The position numbers and the translations under genes were made by a program. This document shows, piece after piece, positions 22,759 to 52,103 of a DNA stretch of 64,000 bases. Where the stretch lies: the sequence record OP978391.1, one strand, 5' to 3'. Position 1 is the stretch's first letter. Each line of letters begins with the position of its first letter. The notes below the pieces were generated by a model that was not told the DNA's origin, made no database searches, and was given only the letters and a program-made list of their open reading frames with translations. The stretch is from Escherichia phage HP3.2.

Positions 22759-23244
22759 TCAAGTATTGTAAAACATTTGATTCAATCGCTTATATTGCCG
22801 AATCTTTTGGTCAGAAAAAGAAATTTGGGTTTCAAGCCATTCAATATATTCTGCCGCAGCTTGCATCAAATTTCCTTCATAGCCATCGTTATTTTCTTGT
22901 GCAGCTAATTTAGCTAATGCGTATGAAATACGTTCACCTTGAAAATCGGCTTTAGGCTTCTGAACAACTTGATTAGTTCGCTCTACAACTTCTTCAATTT
23001 CGCCATTTTCAATGGATTCAGTATTCCACAAGCACCAATACGTAATTGGCTTATCGTAGATGTTAATAATCTTTCCGTCGGAAAGTTCAATTTCAATAAT
23101 TCCAGTATCAGGCTCTATATCATCTTCACATTCTTTTGCAAGTTCACGAACTTTAAAGACAGTACCTGCACTAAGTTCCGGCCAGTAATTACACAGCCCT
23201 GTATCAGCACGATTAATTCTAAACCACTTATCTACTGTAATCAT
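22759..23244 (-). CDS. pin: Pin-like protein (protease inhibitor), ca. 161 aa
   Basis: Position between 49 and nrdC; length with start at MITVDKWF matches T4 Pin; called by position. Confidence 0.45.
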   Translation of the reverse strand: MITVDKWFRINRADTGLCNYWPELSAGTVFKVRELAKECEDDIEPDTGIIEIELSDGKIINIYDKPITYWCLWNTESIENGEIEEVVERTNQVVQKPKADFQGERISYALAKLAAQENNDGYEGNLMQAAAEYIEWLETQISFSDQKIRQYKRLNQMFYNT

Positions 23245-23366
23245 GTCCCATCTCCATATCAATTAAGTCATTTATCGTTGGTTCATTATATATTGTTTCT
23301 TCATCAGTGTAAACCGGTTCTTCCGGCTCTGGCTCTACAGTTTCCCATCTAGCCGCCCACCAAGGT

Positions 23367-23576
23367 TTAACCCCGAAGCTTATTAAGTTCTTCATAATCA
23401 ATCCAAGATTCTAGTCCTGATGGCAGGTCACATTCAATTTCCCAAAGAAGTTCTTCAATTTTCTGAAGACGATCTAGTTCTTCGGCTGGAATAGTAACCA
23501 TTGACGGAGCTCGTGATACATTAATATCGTAAATCATATTTACCCCAGTTTGACCATGCAATCGCCGTATTTCCAC
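23367..23576 (-). CDS. Hypothetical protein (69 aa)
   Basis: Small acidic ORF. Confidence 0.45.
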   Translation of the reverse strand: MEIRRLHGQTGVNMIYDINVSRAPSMVTIPAEELDRLQKIEELLWEIECDLPSGLESWIDYEELNKLRG

Positions 23577-23755
23577 TTAGAAATAGACTTTTCGCCATTA
23601 GAATAATAAACTTCGAGTTTAGCACGATTATTTTTAATTTGAATAACCTTGGCTGTCATCAAAGTTCCATACCCATAATAAACTGCAACTTCATCACCTA
23701 CATATACCGCGCTTCCGCGGTAATCATGAATATAGTCAGTTCCTTCGAGCATCAT
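23540..23755 (-). CDS. Hypothetical protein (71 aa)
   Basis: Small ORF abutting nrdC. Confidence 0.45.
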   Translation of the reverse strand: MMLEGTDYIHDYRGSAVYVGDEVAVYYGYGTLMTAKVIQIKNNRAKLEVYYSNGEKSISKWKYGDCMVKLG

Positions 23756-24015
23756 TTAAAATATTCTCGCAGTTGGTCAAATCCACCAATATGACTTCCA
23801 TCAGGAGCAAATACCTGAGGCATTGTCAAGCCGATTTGAGTATCACGACCTAGTTTAGTCAGAAGCTCAGCGATTTTCTCATCATCAAAAACACCTTTTT
23901 CCGGCATAATGTTGATAAATTCAAACGGCTGTTTCTTCACAGTCAAAAGACGTTTTGCATTATCGCAATACACGCATTTATGAATGTTGCTATCATAACC
24001 ATATACTTTAAACAT
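23752..24015 (-). CDS. nrdC: Thioredoxin/glutaredoxin NrdC (87 aa)
   Basis: 87 aa; CVYC redox motif; sequence MFKVYGYDSNIHKCVYCDNAKRLL... agrees with T4 NrdC. Confidence 0.85.
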   Translation of the reverse strand: MFKVYGYDSNIHKCVYCDNAKRLLTVKKQPFEFINIMPEKGVFDDEKIAELLTKLGRDTQIGLTMPQVFAPDGSHIGGFDQLREYFK

Positions 24016-24016
24016 A

Positions 24017-24259
24017 TTATTCCTTAATTCCTAGTACTTGTTTAAAAGTCTCGTCGTAATCAAGACTTTGGCCCGTTTGTTCTTTATGTTTGTATATAAT
24101 ATCACTTACTTCTGATAGCATATTTTTATATGAACGAGTTAAAGCAGATTTAAGCACGCTGTATCTATCAGGAAATTTACCGTGTTCATTATAATAAGCT
24201 ATTGCTAATTCACGGACTGCCTTTTCAGCAGCCTCCATATATTCTTTACGCTTGGTCAT
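24017..24259 (-). CDS. Hypothetical protein (80 aa)
   Basis: ORF directly upstream of nrdC. Confidence 0.5.
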
Positions 24260-24261
24260 TT

Positions 24262-24651
24262 TTAATCCAAAATATTATTAGGCATTGGTTGAACACTCAC
24301 AAGTTCTTTAAAGAACTCAGTAGAGTCAGGCAATTTAACCATTTCCGGAGCATGCTTACTGAATTTATGTTTACATTGACGGCATTTATATTCAAGCTCT
24401 GGTTTACGCCAGTTAATCAACTGAACTTGTTCAGTACCGCATTCAGGGCAATTAGGAACGTTTTTAGAAGCTCTTTCACGTCGTTCAACCATAGCCATAA
24501 TAGCATCCCATGCTGGAGGTTTAAAATCTAAATCGTCGCAGCCGTGAATCTTTCCACGCATTTCCATATCATCTTCCTCACCAGCCATAATAATTTTAAT
24601 TAAACTGGAATTACTTGAAGCTGCAATGTCTTCTAATAAACGCTTTTTCAT
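24262..24651 (-). CDS. Zinc-ribbon protein (129 aa)
   Basis: Paired Cys motifs CPECGT ... CRQCKH. Confidence 0.5.
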
Positions 24652-25577
24652 TTCAATACCTCAATAGCATTACGTAAACCATTTGCTTTTGCATTAAGAG
24701 CTTTTAACAATTTGGTGTGTTCTGCAATTTGGGCTTCAACTTCAATCAAACGGGCATTGAGATATTCACGTTCTTCACTCAGATTATCAACCTTTTCTAC
24801 TTTAGGCTCTTTTACAACTGTCTTATATGTATTAGGGTTCTTCAGTTTAATTAGAATGCGTGAACTGTATAACATTGAACCATTATCTTCGGTTTCGTCA
24901 TACATTTCCACTACGTCCATAATTTTTAACATCATGCGGAGTTTATAAGACAACGAACGAATAGTTTTGTTGTGCTTATTAATTTCTTTAGCTGTCATGG
25001 TGCCAAGATTACGTGAGTAATAATAAGGAACCTGGATATTAATTAATACTGATGAACCACCTGGCTTGTGTGTTACTTCATCAGCAATAACCCAGTCCTT
25101 AACATGAACTGTATTTGTACGGTCATCGCCCGCGGTAAATAGTTTGCGAGCATGCTTAAAAAGCATATTCACTTGGTCATTGAATTGACAAGCAAATTTA
25201 TCAGCAAATTTAGTTTCAGGAATGGTAGAAAACCAATCAGCCAAATGAGTCTTTTTAACATCATTAACAATAGTAAATTCAACCAAATCGGTTATAGATG
25301 TCTCAGATTTAATGAAGCTCGGCTTCATAAAGTTTTTAATGTTCTCATGAGCTACAGTAGAAGATAACATACGAGAACGTTTAAACCATTCAAGCAAATT
25401 GCCTAACGAATGAGAATAAGCGTTTTGAGTATCTTTACAGATATGATTTTCCTGACCAACATATTGAAGGAAATCACGAAGAATATTATTGATTACTGCT
25501 CTGTGCCCGATCTGATAATTACGGTGTTTAGTAATAAGACTGTCAAAATAATCAATATAATGTTTACGAGTTTTCAT
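24648..25577 (-). CDS. Hyperplastic-region paralog A (309 aa) with C-terminal coiled coil
   Basis: Shares core motifs (KIMDVV, F-K-x-A-R-K-L) and a C-terminal heptad-rich tail with the next three genes. Confidence 0.6.
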   Translation of the reverse strand: MKTRKHYIDYFDSLITKHRNYQIGHRAVINNILRDFLQYVGQENHICKDTQNAYSHSLGNLLEWFKRSRMLSSTVAHENIKNFMKPSFIKSETSITDLVEFTIVNDVKKTHLADWFSTIPETKFADKFACQFNDQVNMLFKHARKLFTAGDDRTNTVHVKDWVIADEVTHKPGGSSVLINIQVPYYYSRNLGTMTAKEINKHNKTIRSLSYKLRMMLKIMDVVEMYDETEDNGSMLYSSRILIKLKNPNTYKTVVKEPKVEKVDNLSEEREYLNARLIEVEAQIAEHTKLLKALNAKANGLRNAIEVLK

Positions 25578-25629
25578 ATTCTTCTCACTTGGTTAATGGT
25601 TTATACTCCGAGCCATCCTTGGCTTTAAA

Positions 25630-26631
25630 TTACTTAATTAACTGTAAAGCTTGTTCAAGACGATCAAGACGATTAACGGATTCTTCCCAAATCTTTTTAG
25701 CCTGCTCATATTCTTTCTGCGCTTTATTAGAAATTTCTAGAACTTCTTTATAAGCTTTTTCTAGTGCAATAACTTCTGGACGAATTTCTACTGGTTCAGG
25801 CGAATCGTCAAGACATTCCATTAGTTCCTCAAGGGTAGTTTCTTCTTTAGGAGTATTCACAATTTCATCACATTTTTGTTGGTAAATTTCTTTATCAGTC
25901 GGTGAGTACGCACACTTTACTTCACGGAGACTAACTACAATTTTATATCCTTCCCAACCGCATATATTCTTAAAAGGATAAGTATGAATATTTTCTACTG
26001 TTTCCATACAAAGTAATGCGGTCTCTAACTGACGAGTTATATCGCTAGCAATTGAGAAAAATTTATTAATGTTCTTTTGATTAGCTTCTGGTGTAAAAAA
26101 TTCATAATTCACAAAAATAGCTGCTTTATTTTTATCAAGCTCATATTCTTTTATGATAATCATATCAGAAGCCCAAGGATGGATTTGACGATAATCACCA
26201 TAGCATAATTTAGAAGCTGATTTTAGAATTTGCTTCTTGAAAAGTCTAAAATTACTAATCCAACGACGAGTAAAAATATTCTCAGGGTCTTCTTTATTAT
26301 TAAGATGATAAGAATTAACATCACCGAACCAACTGTATCCTACTACATCTTTAGTTCGTTTAATTTCTTTCCCAAATTTACCAAGAATATCTTGATTAAC
26401 TAAATATGAAAGAAGACGAGAACCTTTAAAAGTTTCCTTAATATCATCTTTATATTCGCGACTAGAAATTTTATGAACTTCATGAATAAATTTGCTTGAA
26501 GAAACAATACTTGCATCAATATTATTGAGCCATTGATTGATAATGGAAATAACACTATTCTGACTAAACACAGGTTTAACTTTATCATCAATAACGCTAT
26601 TGAATGATTTGATATATTCGTTACGAGTCAT
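25630..26631 (-). CDS. Hyperplastic-region paralog B (ca. 333 aa) with C-terminal coiled coil
   Basis: Motif WISNFRLFKKQILKSASKL aligns with paralog C WRFIALFRKQLKQILSTASRL; start taken at MTRNEYIKSF. Confidence 0.6.
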   Translation of the reverse strand: MTRNEYIKSFNSVIDDKVKPVFSQNSVISIINQWLNNIDASIVSSSKFIHEVHKISSREYKDDIKETFKGSRLLSYLVNQDILGKFGKEIKRTKDVVGYSWFGDVNSYHLNNKEDPENIFTRRWISNFRLFKKQILKSASKLCYGDYRQIHPWASDMIIIKEYELDKNKAAIFVNYEFFTPEANQKNINKFFSIASDITRQLETALLCMETVENIHTYPFKNICGWEGYKIVVSLREVKCAYSPTDKEIYQQKCDEIVNTPKEETTLEELMECLDDSPEPVEIRPEVIALEKAYKEVLEISNKAQKEYEQAKKIWEESVNRLDRLEQALQLIK

Positions 26632-26688
26632 ATTAATCTCCTCAGTAGAAAGTAAGAACATTATACCACATCCTTGTGGCAAAGTAAA

Positions 26689-27711
26689 CTAGTTTAGTGC
26701 ATTTAGTGCGTTGTTCAGTTTAGAACGTTGCTTCGTAAGATTTTTGACTTTTTCTTGAGCTTTTTCTAGCATCTTTTCAGCTTCTAACACTTCATTAGTT
26801 GCTTTAACGAGTTCATCATCTACTGCCTTGATAGACTTCTCAATCGCATCCGCGTGCCATTTTTCAACAGGTTTAAGACTCGGATTTTCAACAGGAAGAA
26901 AATTCACTTTATTGAATTTCCATGTATCTTTATTACCTGAACTATACATCCAAAATTTAGGATCGTTTGATGAGTAATTGGATAAATTTAAGATATCTTG
27001 CACTTCCTGCTTTTTCTCTTGCGGGACTTCGTCCTTTCTCAAAAAATCGTATTTAAATGAAACGATCATATCAAGTTCATACGTTGTTGTATGTTCCCAA
27101 TTTCGCTCAAAATGAGGTAAAATCTTAGACTGAACCGCGGCAACTACATCCATATACTTAAATGCTTCTGTCAACTGTGATTTAAGGCATTCACAAATTG
27201 AAAGAGAATTTTTTGTATTAGGTTTAAAGCTAATTCGTGCAGTTCTGTTATTTTCTTTTAATGGTCTTACTTCCATCTGAAGAGTATAACCATCAAATTT
27301 CAGATTCTTTAAGTTAATATCAGAACCTTTTAATCGACTAGCAGTAGACAAAATTTGCTTTAATTGTTTACGGAATAGAGCAATAAATCTCCATTCAATA
27401 CGATAATGATTTGGATTGAAAAATCCAGATGATAAATCGACCTTACTCTGACCAACACCTTGAACAAATAGAGGATTTTTATAATCAATAGTTTTACAGA
27501 AATCGGTGAGCTGTTCACGAGCAGTCATTTGAGTAATATACCCAGCTTCATTAAAATTACGCACCCATTCACTGCTGTTCAGATGTTTAAAGGCGTGAAT
27601 GGAACAATTAACTTTACCAAGGTCTAAATTATTTTCGCACAAAAATGTCATAGCATCACGAGTATAGCTGGCATTACGAACCATATCTTCAATTTGAGAA
27701 CGAGTTTTCAT
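26689..27711 (-). CDS. Hyperplastic-region paralog C (340 aa) with C-terminal coiled coil
   Basis: Motifs FRKQLKQILSTASRL and KYMDVVAAV shared with paralogs A and B. Confidence 0.6.
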   Translation of the reverse strand: MKTRSQIEDMVRNASYTRDAMTFLCENNLDLGKVNCSIHAFKHLNSSEWVRNFNEAGYITQMTAREQLTDFCKTIDYKNPLFVQGVGQSKVDLSSGFFNPNHYRIEWRFIALFRKQLKQILSTASRLKGSDINLKNLKFDGYTLQMEVRPLKENNRTARISFKPNTKNSLSICECLKSQLTEAFKYMDVVAAVQSKILPHFERNWEHTTTYELDMIVSFKYDFLRKDEVPQEKKQEVQDILNLSNYSSNDPKFWMYSSGNKDTWKFNKVNFLPVENPSLKPVEKWHADAIEKSIKAVDDELVKATNEVLEAEKMLEKAQEKVKNLTKQRSKLNNALNALN

Positions 27712-27719
27712 GGTGTTCC

Positions 27720-28628
27720 TTAAGATTTAAGTAAATCGATAATTTTAATTAACTTTTCACGCTCAGATTTAGCTTTACTACTCAGTCCAGATAGTCTGAA
27801 AATTTCATCATCATATTGTTGAATAGAAATATTCAGCTCTTCAATTTGCTTATTAAAATAATCAATTTGCTCAGAATGTTTTTCATTACTACGAACTGGT
27901 ACAGGTTTTGTAGGCAATTTAGTTGAACTGGATTCATCCGGGCGATAAATTAAAATACAACTTGAACCAATAGGGCATTTTGCACCAGATGAATATTCTA
28001 ATGTTCCGGCTTCTTTTAAAACTTCAAAAGCTAAACAGAGATGATGCCCCATATTAACATAATCTGTAGAGTGAGCTCTGATATAATAATCATCGCCACG
28101 AATACTAAATTTAAAGCATTTAAGGTCTTCTGTATTATTGGTCTTAAAAATCATTTGTTTATCTAGACCTTTAGCTAATCGAGCGCCTAATGCTAATAAT
28201 CGTCGTTGATTTTCCCACAAATCTGCGATCATTTGGTCAAATGATAATTTCGGCATTAATCGACCATAAAGGTCATATCCTTTATTATAATTGCGAAGGA
28301 TTTCACTCGCATTAATACGAGACAACGCTCCAATTTTATTAAGGGCTTTCATGATGCGATTAGATAAACCCATTCCAGACCCGTTTGTTCGTTGTAAATG
28401 TTTATCTAATCCAAACCCAATATCAACTTTAAATTTATCTAAAATTTCAGCATGAACATCTCTGTCAATAACATTCAAATCCAAAGTTGGGTTAAATCTA
28501 TGAAAAAATTTATCTGGCTCTCCACGACGAAGTACAGTCCATTCATTCAATTTTTTATTAACTAAAGATTTAATTACTGCATTGACATTATTAATTACTA
28601 CTGACATATTTTCCTCACTCAATTTCAA
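27720..28628 (-). CDS. Hyperplastic-region protein D (302 aa) with C-terminal coiled coil; probable diverged paralog
   Basis: Same size class and C-terminal coiled coil; weaker core similarity (RRLLALGARLAKGL). Confidence 0.55.
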   Translation of the reverse strand: MKLSEENMSVVINNVNAVIKSLVNKKLNEWTVLRRGEPDKFFHRFNPTLDLNVIDRDVHAEILDKFKVDIGFGLDKHLQRTNGSGMGLSNRIMKALNKIGALSRINASEILRNYNKGYDLYGRLMPKLSFDQMIADLWENQRRLLALGARLAKGLDKQMIFKTNNTEDLKCFKFSIRGDDYYIRAHSTDYVNMGHHLCLAFEVLKEAGTLEYSSGAKCPIGSSCILIYRPDESSSTKLPTKPVPVRSNEKHSEQIDYFNKQIEELNISIQQYDDEIFRLSGLSSKAKSEREKLIKIIDLLKS

Positions 28629-29022
28629 TTTTACTAAATATACAGAATAAGATGGAACAGACTATATAAGCACCACACACAGATTGAACTAATACCATTC
28701 CAAAGAACCAAACAATATTATCAAACAATGTCTGTTTTACGTCGAAAGGACGTAAACTTACAGTAATATTATCGCCTTTTTCTATTGATGAATACATCTC
28801 TGGTGAAATATATTCGCTAAATCTATAACCGTCTTTGAGTTCATATACAGCAATAAACGATAAACTAGACCCCTTTCCTTGAGTTCCTGTAAAGGTATTA
28901 ACTACAGTAACATCATAATCTTTATAATGCATATAATCATTAATTGCGTAATAACCATATGCAACTACTACACATAAACAACATATCAATAAATTCAATC
29001 TTTTAATTATCAACTGTTTCAT
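28615..29022 (-). CDS. Membrane protein (135 aa)
   Basis: N- and C-terminal hydrophobic helices (LLICCLCVVVAYGYYAI; VWFFGMVLVQSVCGAYIVCSILFCIF). Confidence 0.5.
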   Translation of the reverse strand: MKQLIIKRLNLLICCLCVVVAYGYYAINDYMHYKDYDVTVVNTFTGTQGKGSSLSFIAVYELKDGYRFSEYISPEMYSSIEKGDNITVSLRPFDVKQTLFDNIVWFFGMVLVQSVCGAYIVCSILFCIFSKIEIE

Positions 29023-29077
29023 AATAATCTCAATTAAAAGGGCTTAGAACCATTATACCATCCTTGGTATAAAGCGG

Positions 29078-51572: not shown

Positions 51573-52103
51573 TTAAACTTCTGCTATAATTTTGCCATCT
51601 TTTTCTACTTGAAAATACGTATAAGGAATCGTTGCTGTGCATACTAAAGCTGGGTCTGAATCTTCCGTGTAGCTAAATTCTACTTCAGACAGGTCAGAAA
51701 CCCAAGGCTTATAAAAATTTATTGACATCACGATTTCAGTTTTACTATTATCTAAAATGTAAAGCGTAATGTATTCAGGACCTGTTTTTTGGGCAGTATT
51801 TTCGCCTGTAAGATAGTTACTAGTTCCTAGCATCCATTCATACATTCCTATCCACGACTTAAGCTCTTCGTCAACTATAAATCTCACGATGAGTGGATCG
51901 TATTCAAATGTAACTCCTGGACGTTGTGCTCTGCCTAGTCCAAACGGCCCAGTCACGGTATCAGTAACAGGTATCCTAATTCCTGGAATAGGAACTGACT
52001 GAGCATTTAAAGTAAAAGCAGATGTAGTATTACTATGTGGTATTGATACTACAAAGTTAGTTGTATTTGCTTGGTTAAAAATTTGTTGCAGTGCTTGCGA
52101 CAT
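51573..52103 (-). CDS. 3: Tail sheath stabiliser/completion protein gp3 (ca. 176 aa)
   Basis: Start taken at MSQALQQIFNQANTT to match T4 gp3 length. Confidence 0.8.
   Translation of the reverse strand: MSQALQQIFNQANTTNFVVSIPHSNTTSAFTLNAQSVPIPGIRIPVTDTVTGPFGLGRAQRPGVTFEYDPLIVRFIVDEELKSWIGMYEWMLGTSNYLTGENTAQKTGPEYITLYILDNSKTEIVMSINFYKPWVSDLSEVEFSYTEDSDPALVCTATIPYTYFQVEKDGKIIAEV

Follow-up and report, generated by a model that had tools for sequence, protein, structure and literature searches.

Four consecutive genes in the nrdC region of phage HP3.2

The stretch of DNA analysed here (the window) comprises 64,000 nucleotides of Escherichia phage HP3.2 (sequence record OP978391.1), and the element under study is a run of four consecutive genes within it. 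A sequence-only reading had described these genes as a tandem array of diverged paralogs with C-terminal coiled coils, encoding proteins of 309, ca. 333, 340 and 302 amino acids. Open reading frames of these sizes were found at the expected positions, except that the fourth gene probably encodes 295 rather than 302 residues. The 5.1 kb surrounding the array shares 100% DNA identity with Escherichia phage HP3 and 98-99% with many Tequatrovirus (T4-like) genomes, and the genes, labelled A to D, are orthologs of T4 nrdC.3, nrdC.4, nrdC.5 and nrdC.6, respectively:

24648-25577, minus strand: gene A (nrdC.3), 309 amino acids; 61% identity to T4 nrdC.3 and 77% to the Mosigvirus homolog; assigned by a full-length match to phrog_1435 (E-value (E) 7.8e-116) and by the T4 annotation
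25630-26631, minus strand: gene B (nrdC.4), 333 amino acids from ATG; 91.6% identity to T4 nrdC.4; assigned by a full-length match to phrog_1435 (E 2e-166) and by PF26897 on its homologs
26689-27711, minus strand: gene C (nrdC.5), 340 amino acids; 91.5% identity to T4 nrdC.5; a DUF7235 protein, assigned by PF23882 (residues 1-340; 419.8 bits, cut-off 30) and phrog_2351
27720-28607, minus strand: gene D (nrdC.6), 295 amino acids from ATG; 96.9% identity to T4 nrdC.6 over the shared part; assigned by a full-length match to phrog_2257 (E 5.5e-153) and by PF26899 on its homologs

Gene C lies between nrdC.6 and nrdC.4, as in T4. An alternative reading of gene D starts from a TTG at 28628 and gives 302 residues; the ATG at 28607 is the more likely start because a GAGG Shine-Dalgarno sequence lies 6 nucleotides upstream and because it is the annotated start in both HP3 and T4. 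Every gene of the array region is carried on the minus strand, and plus-strand open reading frames there were rejected, all being at most 78 codons long and nested inside minus-strand genes.

Pfam and PHROGs catalogue the four proteins as three separate families, all of unknown function. PF26899 was present on all 105 homologs found for gene D, and the PF23882 (DUF7235) model did not match genes A, B or D. In GenBank many homologs of nrdC.2 to nrdC.11 carry the label 'thioredoxin'. No thioredoxin family was among the Pfam or NCBIfam scan results for the four proteins, and the gene name nrdC.x is the probable origin of the label. Separately, the RefSeq record of HP3 gives the genus as Rosemountvirus despite the 98-99% DNA identity to Tequatrovirus genomes.

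Profile comparisons link the four proteins

When the four proteins were compared by BLASTP, A and B formed the sole significant pair (E 5.7e-6, 25% identity across 229 residues), and profiles were therefore required. Family alignments assembled from database homologs and from other T4-like genera were compared using hhalign, an approach that the sequence-only reading had proposed as a check on kinship. Families A and B matched at 98.2% (E 3e-14), and B and C at 93.1% (E 3e-7) over 249 columns. The B-C match persisted at 91.5% when the last 55 residues were removed, indicating that it is not due to the coiled coil. Against each single-family profile D reached 1-16%, which is not significant; against a merged A/B/C profile it reached 70.8% (E 3.8e-5), and against a profile enlarged with distant and bridging members 91.1% (E 1e-6). 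The match of D spans the shared core, aligning SRLLSYLV...ILKSASKL..GD with GALSRINA...LLALGARLAKGLDK. The nrdC.8 family, taken as a negative control because its proteins likewise terminate in a helix, gave at most 1.3% by hhalign; on this result nrdC.8 (175 amino acids) was rejected as a fifth member despite its terminal helix.

The bridge to D is provided by gp085 of Enterobacter phage IME523, a 335-residue protein whose match to the A/B/C profile scored 94.6% and whose match to the D family scored 94.0%. It was identified as a tblastn relative of the protein P0234, itself found by the A/B/C profile at E 2.9e-7. A Foldseek search with the predicted structure of D also matched a 335-residue IME523 protein (E 3.9e-7), which we take to be gp085 because gp085 is the 335-residue gene at this IME523 locus.

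Core motifs common to at least three of the proteins had been noticed from the sequence, and profile-profile alignment set these in register: RRWISNFRLFKKQILKSASKL was paired with WRFIALFRKQLKQILSTASRL, and LKIMDVVEMY, LLCMETVENI and FKYMDVVAAV occupied one column block. Two core motifs, collinear in all four proteins, were located by these alignments:

26188-26268, minus strand: core motif 1 (helix pair), B copy RRWISNFRLFKKQILKSASKLCYGDYR
25119-25199, 27313-27393 and 28155-28229, minus strand: equivalents of core motif 1 in A, C and D, respectively
27133-27174, minus strand: core motif 2 (helix between beta-hairpins, from the AlphaFold2 secondary structure), C copy LTEAFKYMDVVAAV
24900-24941, 25987-26028 and 27999-28040, minus strand: equivalents of core motif 2 in A, B and D, respectively

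A search of the array for DNA repeats detected no trace of duplication except short in-register stretches. Judged from the protein sequences, we hold with high confidence that genes A-D belong to one superfamily that arose by tandem duplication, with D as its most divergent member.

Predicted architecture and the C-terminal helix

Single-chain AlphaFold2 models were obtained for C (mean predicted local distance difference test score (pLDDT) 71.7) and D (pLDDT 78.9). Both show the same order of elements: N-terminal helices, the motif-1 helix pair, a beta-hairpin, the motif-2 helix, a second beta-hairpin, a linker and a long C-terminal helix. This shared order, together with the adjacency of the four genes and their membership in one superfamily, supports the tandem paralogous origin that had been suggested. 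The linker was modelled with low confidence (residues 226-276 in C and 227-242 in D). The C-terminal helix of C spans residues 281-339, and that of D is formed by residues 241-271 and 277-294, interrupted at SGLSS. The predicted plan would thus comprise a basic globular head (helical bundle, beta-hairpin, helix, beta-hairpin), a disordered linker and an amphipathic heptad helix.

The heptad-rich helix proposed from the sequence was recovered in all four proteins, its periodicity exceeding that of shuffled sequences; its length, put at ca. 40 residues, was revised to about 47-59:

24651-24791, minus strand: C-terminal heptad helix of A, residues 263-309 (hydrophobic occupancy of a/d positions 0.86 versus 0.26 elsewhere; equalled by 4 of 5000 shuffles)
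25633-25782, minus strand: C-terminal heptad helix of B, residues 284-333 (a/d occupancy and shuffles)
26692-26871, minus strand: C-terminal helix of C, residues 281-340 (AlphaFold2; 0 of 5000 shuffles)
27723-27887, minus strand: C-terminal helix of D, residues 241-295 (AlphaFold2, a/d occupancy and shuffles)

Across the last 49 residues of the four proteins, hydrophobic residues filled 71-93% of a/d positions versus 14-26% of the others, and when the last 42 or 49 residues were shuffled with their composition preserved, the observed periodicity was equalled in 0-92 trials out of 5000. All four tails finish in a similar [A/I][L/I]xxL[K/N]. Variation is lowest in the C-terminal helix in both the nrdC.4 and the nrdC.6 family, the heads and linkers differing more; within the nrdC.5 family the linker varies most. 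The heads of all four proteins carry a net charge of +5 to +8, and proteins A, C and D have isoelectric points of 9.0-9.3, that of B being 5.9.

Scans against Pfam, NCBIfam and PDB sequence profiles returned no enzyme match; nothing rose above noise in NCBIfam, and no PDB profile gave a meaningful match. Neither an enzyme-like fold nor a solved structural relative was found for the family, and no catalytic-type motif is conserved across it, the invariant positions being mostly hydrophobic. Weak Foldseek matches of the nrdC.5 model to tail-completion and terminator proteins (E 4e-3 to 3e-2) were not relied upon.

Distribution, divergence and natural variants

When 1.84 billion representative proteins were searched with a profile, only 17 reached E ≤0.001, many of them fragmentary, and the full-length matches that were traced to source came from T4-like phages. 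Foldseek searches of viral models added full-length relatives of 300-370 residues, again in T4-like phages, with hosts in Klebsiella, Erwinia, Serratia, Pectobacterium, Yersinia, Acinetobacter and Aeromonas. Members of the family are thus restricted to the T4-like group. By tblastn, phage records numbered 653 for A, 553 for B, 620 for C and 741 for D; a search of viral contigs for related loci with nrdC.5 returned near-identical phages only. The nrdC.6, nrdC.5 and nrdC.4 lineages are present in Gaprivervirus and Dhakavirus, Mosigvirus carries nrdC.6-, nrdC.5- and nrdC.3-like genes, and IME523 has one copy. Since the same paralog lineages recur in Gaprivervirus, Dhakavirus and Mosigvirus, the duplication is old.

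Rapid divergence had also been predicted, and this was borne out in relative terms. Within Tequatrovirus the gene-wide ratio of nonsynonymous to synonymous substitution rates (dN/dS) was 0.14-0.43 for the four genes, compared with 0.00-0.16 for nrdC, 49, nrdD and nrdC.8 to nrdC.11, and alleles have been replaced; the ratio never exceeded 1 in any of the four. The nrdC.3 alleles are deeply diverged (HP3 versus T4: synonymous divergence, dS, >1; 61% identity) and shared between genera, and the HP3 copy is nearer to the Mosigvirus gene (77%) than to that of T4, which points to allele exchange between genera. Two adjoining genes also vary. HP3 nrdC.2 (24262-24651) is 77% identical to T4, compared with 97-100% for the genes flanking nrdC.2 and nrdC.3, and nrdC.7 (28615-29022), encoding a predicted membrane protein, has a dN/dS of 0.10-0.84 over five phage pairs (at least 0.20 in four), raised relative to its downstream neighbours.

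Natural deletions and in-frame chimeras retain a C-terminal helix. In Salmonella phage Manna (L017 3715-4752) the head of nrdC.6 is fused in frame to the linker and helix of nrdC.4, joined at a DEI microhomology, and in phage ACG-C40 (L016 4305-4720) a deletion has left nrdC.6 and remnant stubs. The metagenomic phage sequence P0056 contains an nrdC.5-nrdC.3 fusion, and P0235 (173 amino acids) joins an unrelated N-terminus to the nrdC.5 helix. In reference T4 the annotated nrdC.6 product has 275 residues, because the reading frame is shifted immediately ahead of the C-terminal helix: the 70-nucleotide 'intergenic' segment at T4 51996-52065 (L002 13997-14066) encodes ...SKAKSEREKLIKIVDLLKS* in another frame, corresponding to 27720-27790 of the window. 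The nrdC.6 helix is kept in HP3, T6 and other genera, so that either T4 nrdC.6 has lost the helix or the reference sequence is in error.

Anti-defence function and proposed mechanism

Experimental evidence for function comes from T4. Srikant, Guegler and Laub (eLife 2022, PMC9391042) traced the failure of a T4 deletion mutant on ECOR17 to Dsr1 and showed that expression of T4 nrdC.5 restored plating of the deletion mutant on Dsr1-carrying cells. In that work nrdC.5 was termed an early gene, and the mutant lacking it was viable. According to a recent preprint (PMC12803255), Dsr1 is a SIR2 NADase (an enzyme consuming nicotinamide adenine dinucleotide, NAD+) with a tetratricopeptide repeat (TPR) sensor domain that also occurs in Avs7, and its trigger is a phage major capsid protein. 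Dsr1 works via NAD+ depletion, and phage pathways that rebuild NAD+ overcome it (PMC13464706). By orthology, there is good confidence that HP3 gene C also has an anti-Dsr1 role. Searches of the available literature library returned nothing on the mechanism of nrdC.5, on DUF7235, on an anti-Dsr1 factor or Dsr1 inhibitor, or on the four proteins as one family.

The array lies in a block that extends from nrdD and gene 49 to nrdC.11 and holds several genes acting on host systems, with host-takeover and counter-defence neighbours at 22759-24259. Gp49.2 inhibits OLD, as shown in T6 (PMC13096335), and nrdC.1 inhibits Septu, as shown in T4 (bioRxiv 10.1101/2025.11.20.689424). The HP3 nrdC.1 ortholog is at 24017-24259 with 98.8% identity to T4; no gp49.2 ortholog is annotated in this HP3 stretch. 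The same T4 segment contains pin, encoding a Lon inhibitor. The sequence-only reading had placed the array in an early-expressed accessory region and had seen in it the footprint of arms-race genes. The early, dispensable status of T4 nrdC.5 and an early-like promoter before nrdC.4 agree with the former; the Dsr1 phenotype and the anti-OLD and anti-Septu neighbours support the latter, with evidence that covers one of the four genes.

These observations suggest a model in which the head would be the specificity module, binding a host immune protein stoichiometrically. The nrdC.5 head would bind Dsr1, most likely at its TPR sensor region or at an activation step, and thereby block sensing or activation. 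The C-terminal helix would oligomerize the protein, providing avidity against oligomeric defence proteins, and nrdC.3, nrdC.4 and nrdC.6 would be paralogous counter-defence factors with other targets. Binding of Dsr1 by the head is the most economical mechanism because Dsr1 is a TPR-sensor NADase and the family lacks enzyme-like features. The model as a whole, an old tandem family of counter-defence heads with an oligomerizing helix, is somewhat more probable than its negation. Its parts differ in strength: a counter-defence role for nrdC.3, nrdC.4 and nrdC.6 is evenly balanced, and direct binding combined with oligomerization is put forward tentatively, at less than even chance. A bolder version, which we regard as speculative and improbable, would make the four paralogs modular immune-sensor blockers, each basic head directed against a different defence protein and the helix acting as a common, possibly hetero-oligomeric, handle, with recombination in the array swapping heads and helices to create new specificities. 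Candidate targets would then include different clades of the TPR sensor domain present in Dsr1, in Avs7 and in numerous further effectors.

Several points weigh against the main model. Experimental support concerns nrdC.5 alone and was obtained with the T4 allele, to which the HP3 allele is 91.5% identical; the literature searched held nothing on the function of nrdC.3, nrdC.4 or nrdC.6; gene-wide dN/dS stays below 1; and the frameshifted T4 nrdC.6 without its helix shows that laboratory growth requires neither the helix nor, perhaps, the gene as a whole. The basic heads would equally fit nucleic-acid binding. Accordingly, it has to be considered that only nrdC.5 acts in counter-defence and that the other three use the same scaffold for host takeover, for example as binders of nucleic acid or of a housekeeping protein of the host. 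The charge of the heads, the lack of functional literature on the three genes and the age of the lineages, which have persisted in several genera with selection mostly purifying, fit such a division of roles. The three genes are nonetheless surrounded by several proven anti-defence genes, natural phages have lost, fused or replaced them, their protein sequences evolve faster than flanking genes and no DNA- or RNA-binding family was matched, so that we consider this division unlikely while giving it real weight. An enzymatic route, in which nrdC.5 would counter Dsr1 indirectly by restoring or protecting NAD+ as the NARP pathways do, would suit the observation that NAD+-rebuilding pathways beat Dsr1 (PMC13464706), a system that depletes NAD+. 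It is most improbable in view of the mostly hydrophobic invariant positions, with no catalytic-type motif across the family, and of the absence of enzyme matches in Pfam, NCBIfam or PDB.

A further point against the model is that kinship is weakest for nrdC.6, where it is suggested by comparisons of profiles, by a single bridging sequence and by structure predictions of moderate confidence. If nrdC.6 were instead an unrelated gene, its C-terminal coiled coil convergent and its profile match due to chance, its insignificant scores against any single-family profile and its separate listing in Pfam and PHROGs would be expected. Such convergence would leave unexplained the match of the enlarged profile across the same core motif, the scores of about 94% of the IME523 protein to both sides, the Foldseek match to what is taken as that protein, the identical element order and collinear motifs in the models of C and D, and the failure of the helix-ended nrdC.8 control to match; we judge it very unlikely.

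What is new here is the kinship of the four genes together with a testable structural hypothesis; the gene annotations and the nrdC.5 phenotype were already known. In T4, the most thoroughly studied of phages, nrdC.3, nrdC.4 and nrdC.6 now become concrete candidates for counter-defence screens. Mutations are suggested in the head for specificity and in the helix for assembly, and the natural chimeras and alleles form a ready set for mapping specificity. The widespread 'thioredoxin' mis-annotation is also corrected.

Promoter-like intergenic regions

Two intergenic regions within the array have promoter-like features:

26632-26688, minus strand: upstream of nrdC.4; T4-early-like promoter (TTTACT, 17 nucleotides, TG-n-TATAAT; also written GTTTAC-17-TATAAT) and the nrdC.4 Shine-Dalgarno sequence; identical in T4
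25578-25629, minus strand: upstream of nrdC.3; weaker look-alike (TTTAAA, 18 nucleotides, TATAAA) with the spacer palindrome CCAAGGATGG

A common layout was observed in these two regions and in 29023-29077 (minus strand), consisting of TTTAnn, the palindrome CCA(CA)AGGATG(TG)G and TATAAT or TATAAA, and resembles an early promoter of the T4 type in which a hairpin-forming spacer is conserved. As an exact 10-mer, CCAAGGATGG has three copies in the window, and at one mismatch the spacer palindrome was not enriched there. Rfam searches of both strands of the region found no RNA family.

Comparison with known systems

The closest known system is T4 NrdC.5 (PMC9391042), to which gene C is related by orthology, by its identical position and by a full-length DUF7235 match. 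The publication gives neither a mechanism nor a structure, and the paralogy with nrdC.3, nrdC.4 and nrdC.6 is unmentioned. The families PF26897/phrog_1435 and PF26899/phrog_2257, to which A, B and D match at full length, are catalogued apart and without function; the present analysis unites them with DUF7235 as one superfamily.

Other phage proteins offer functional parallels. In the part of the literature consulted, DSAD1 of SPbeta-like phages, an inhibitor of DSR2, inactivates that SIR2 NADase by binding to it, as is proposed for nrdC.5; it differs in its target (DSR2 rather than Dsr1) and in the phage group concerned. DSAD1 was absent among the BFVD and PDB matches of the models and showed no relation in sequence or structure. 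The acidic DNA mimics of the Ocr type differ from the four proteins, whose basic heads indicate that they are not such mimics. Finally, gp49.2, NrdC.1 and Pin share with the array the same early, non-essential block, and each acts on one host system. They are unrelated small proteins, none of which forms a paralogous array such as that of nrdC.3 to nrdC.6.

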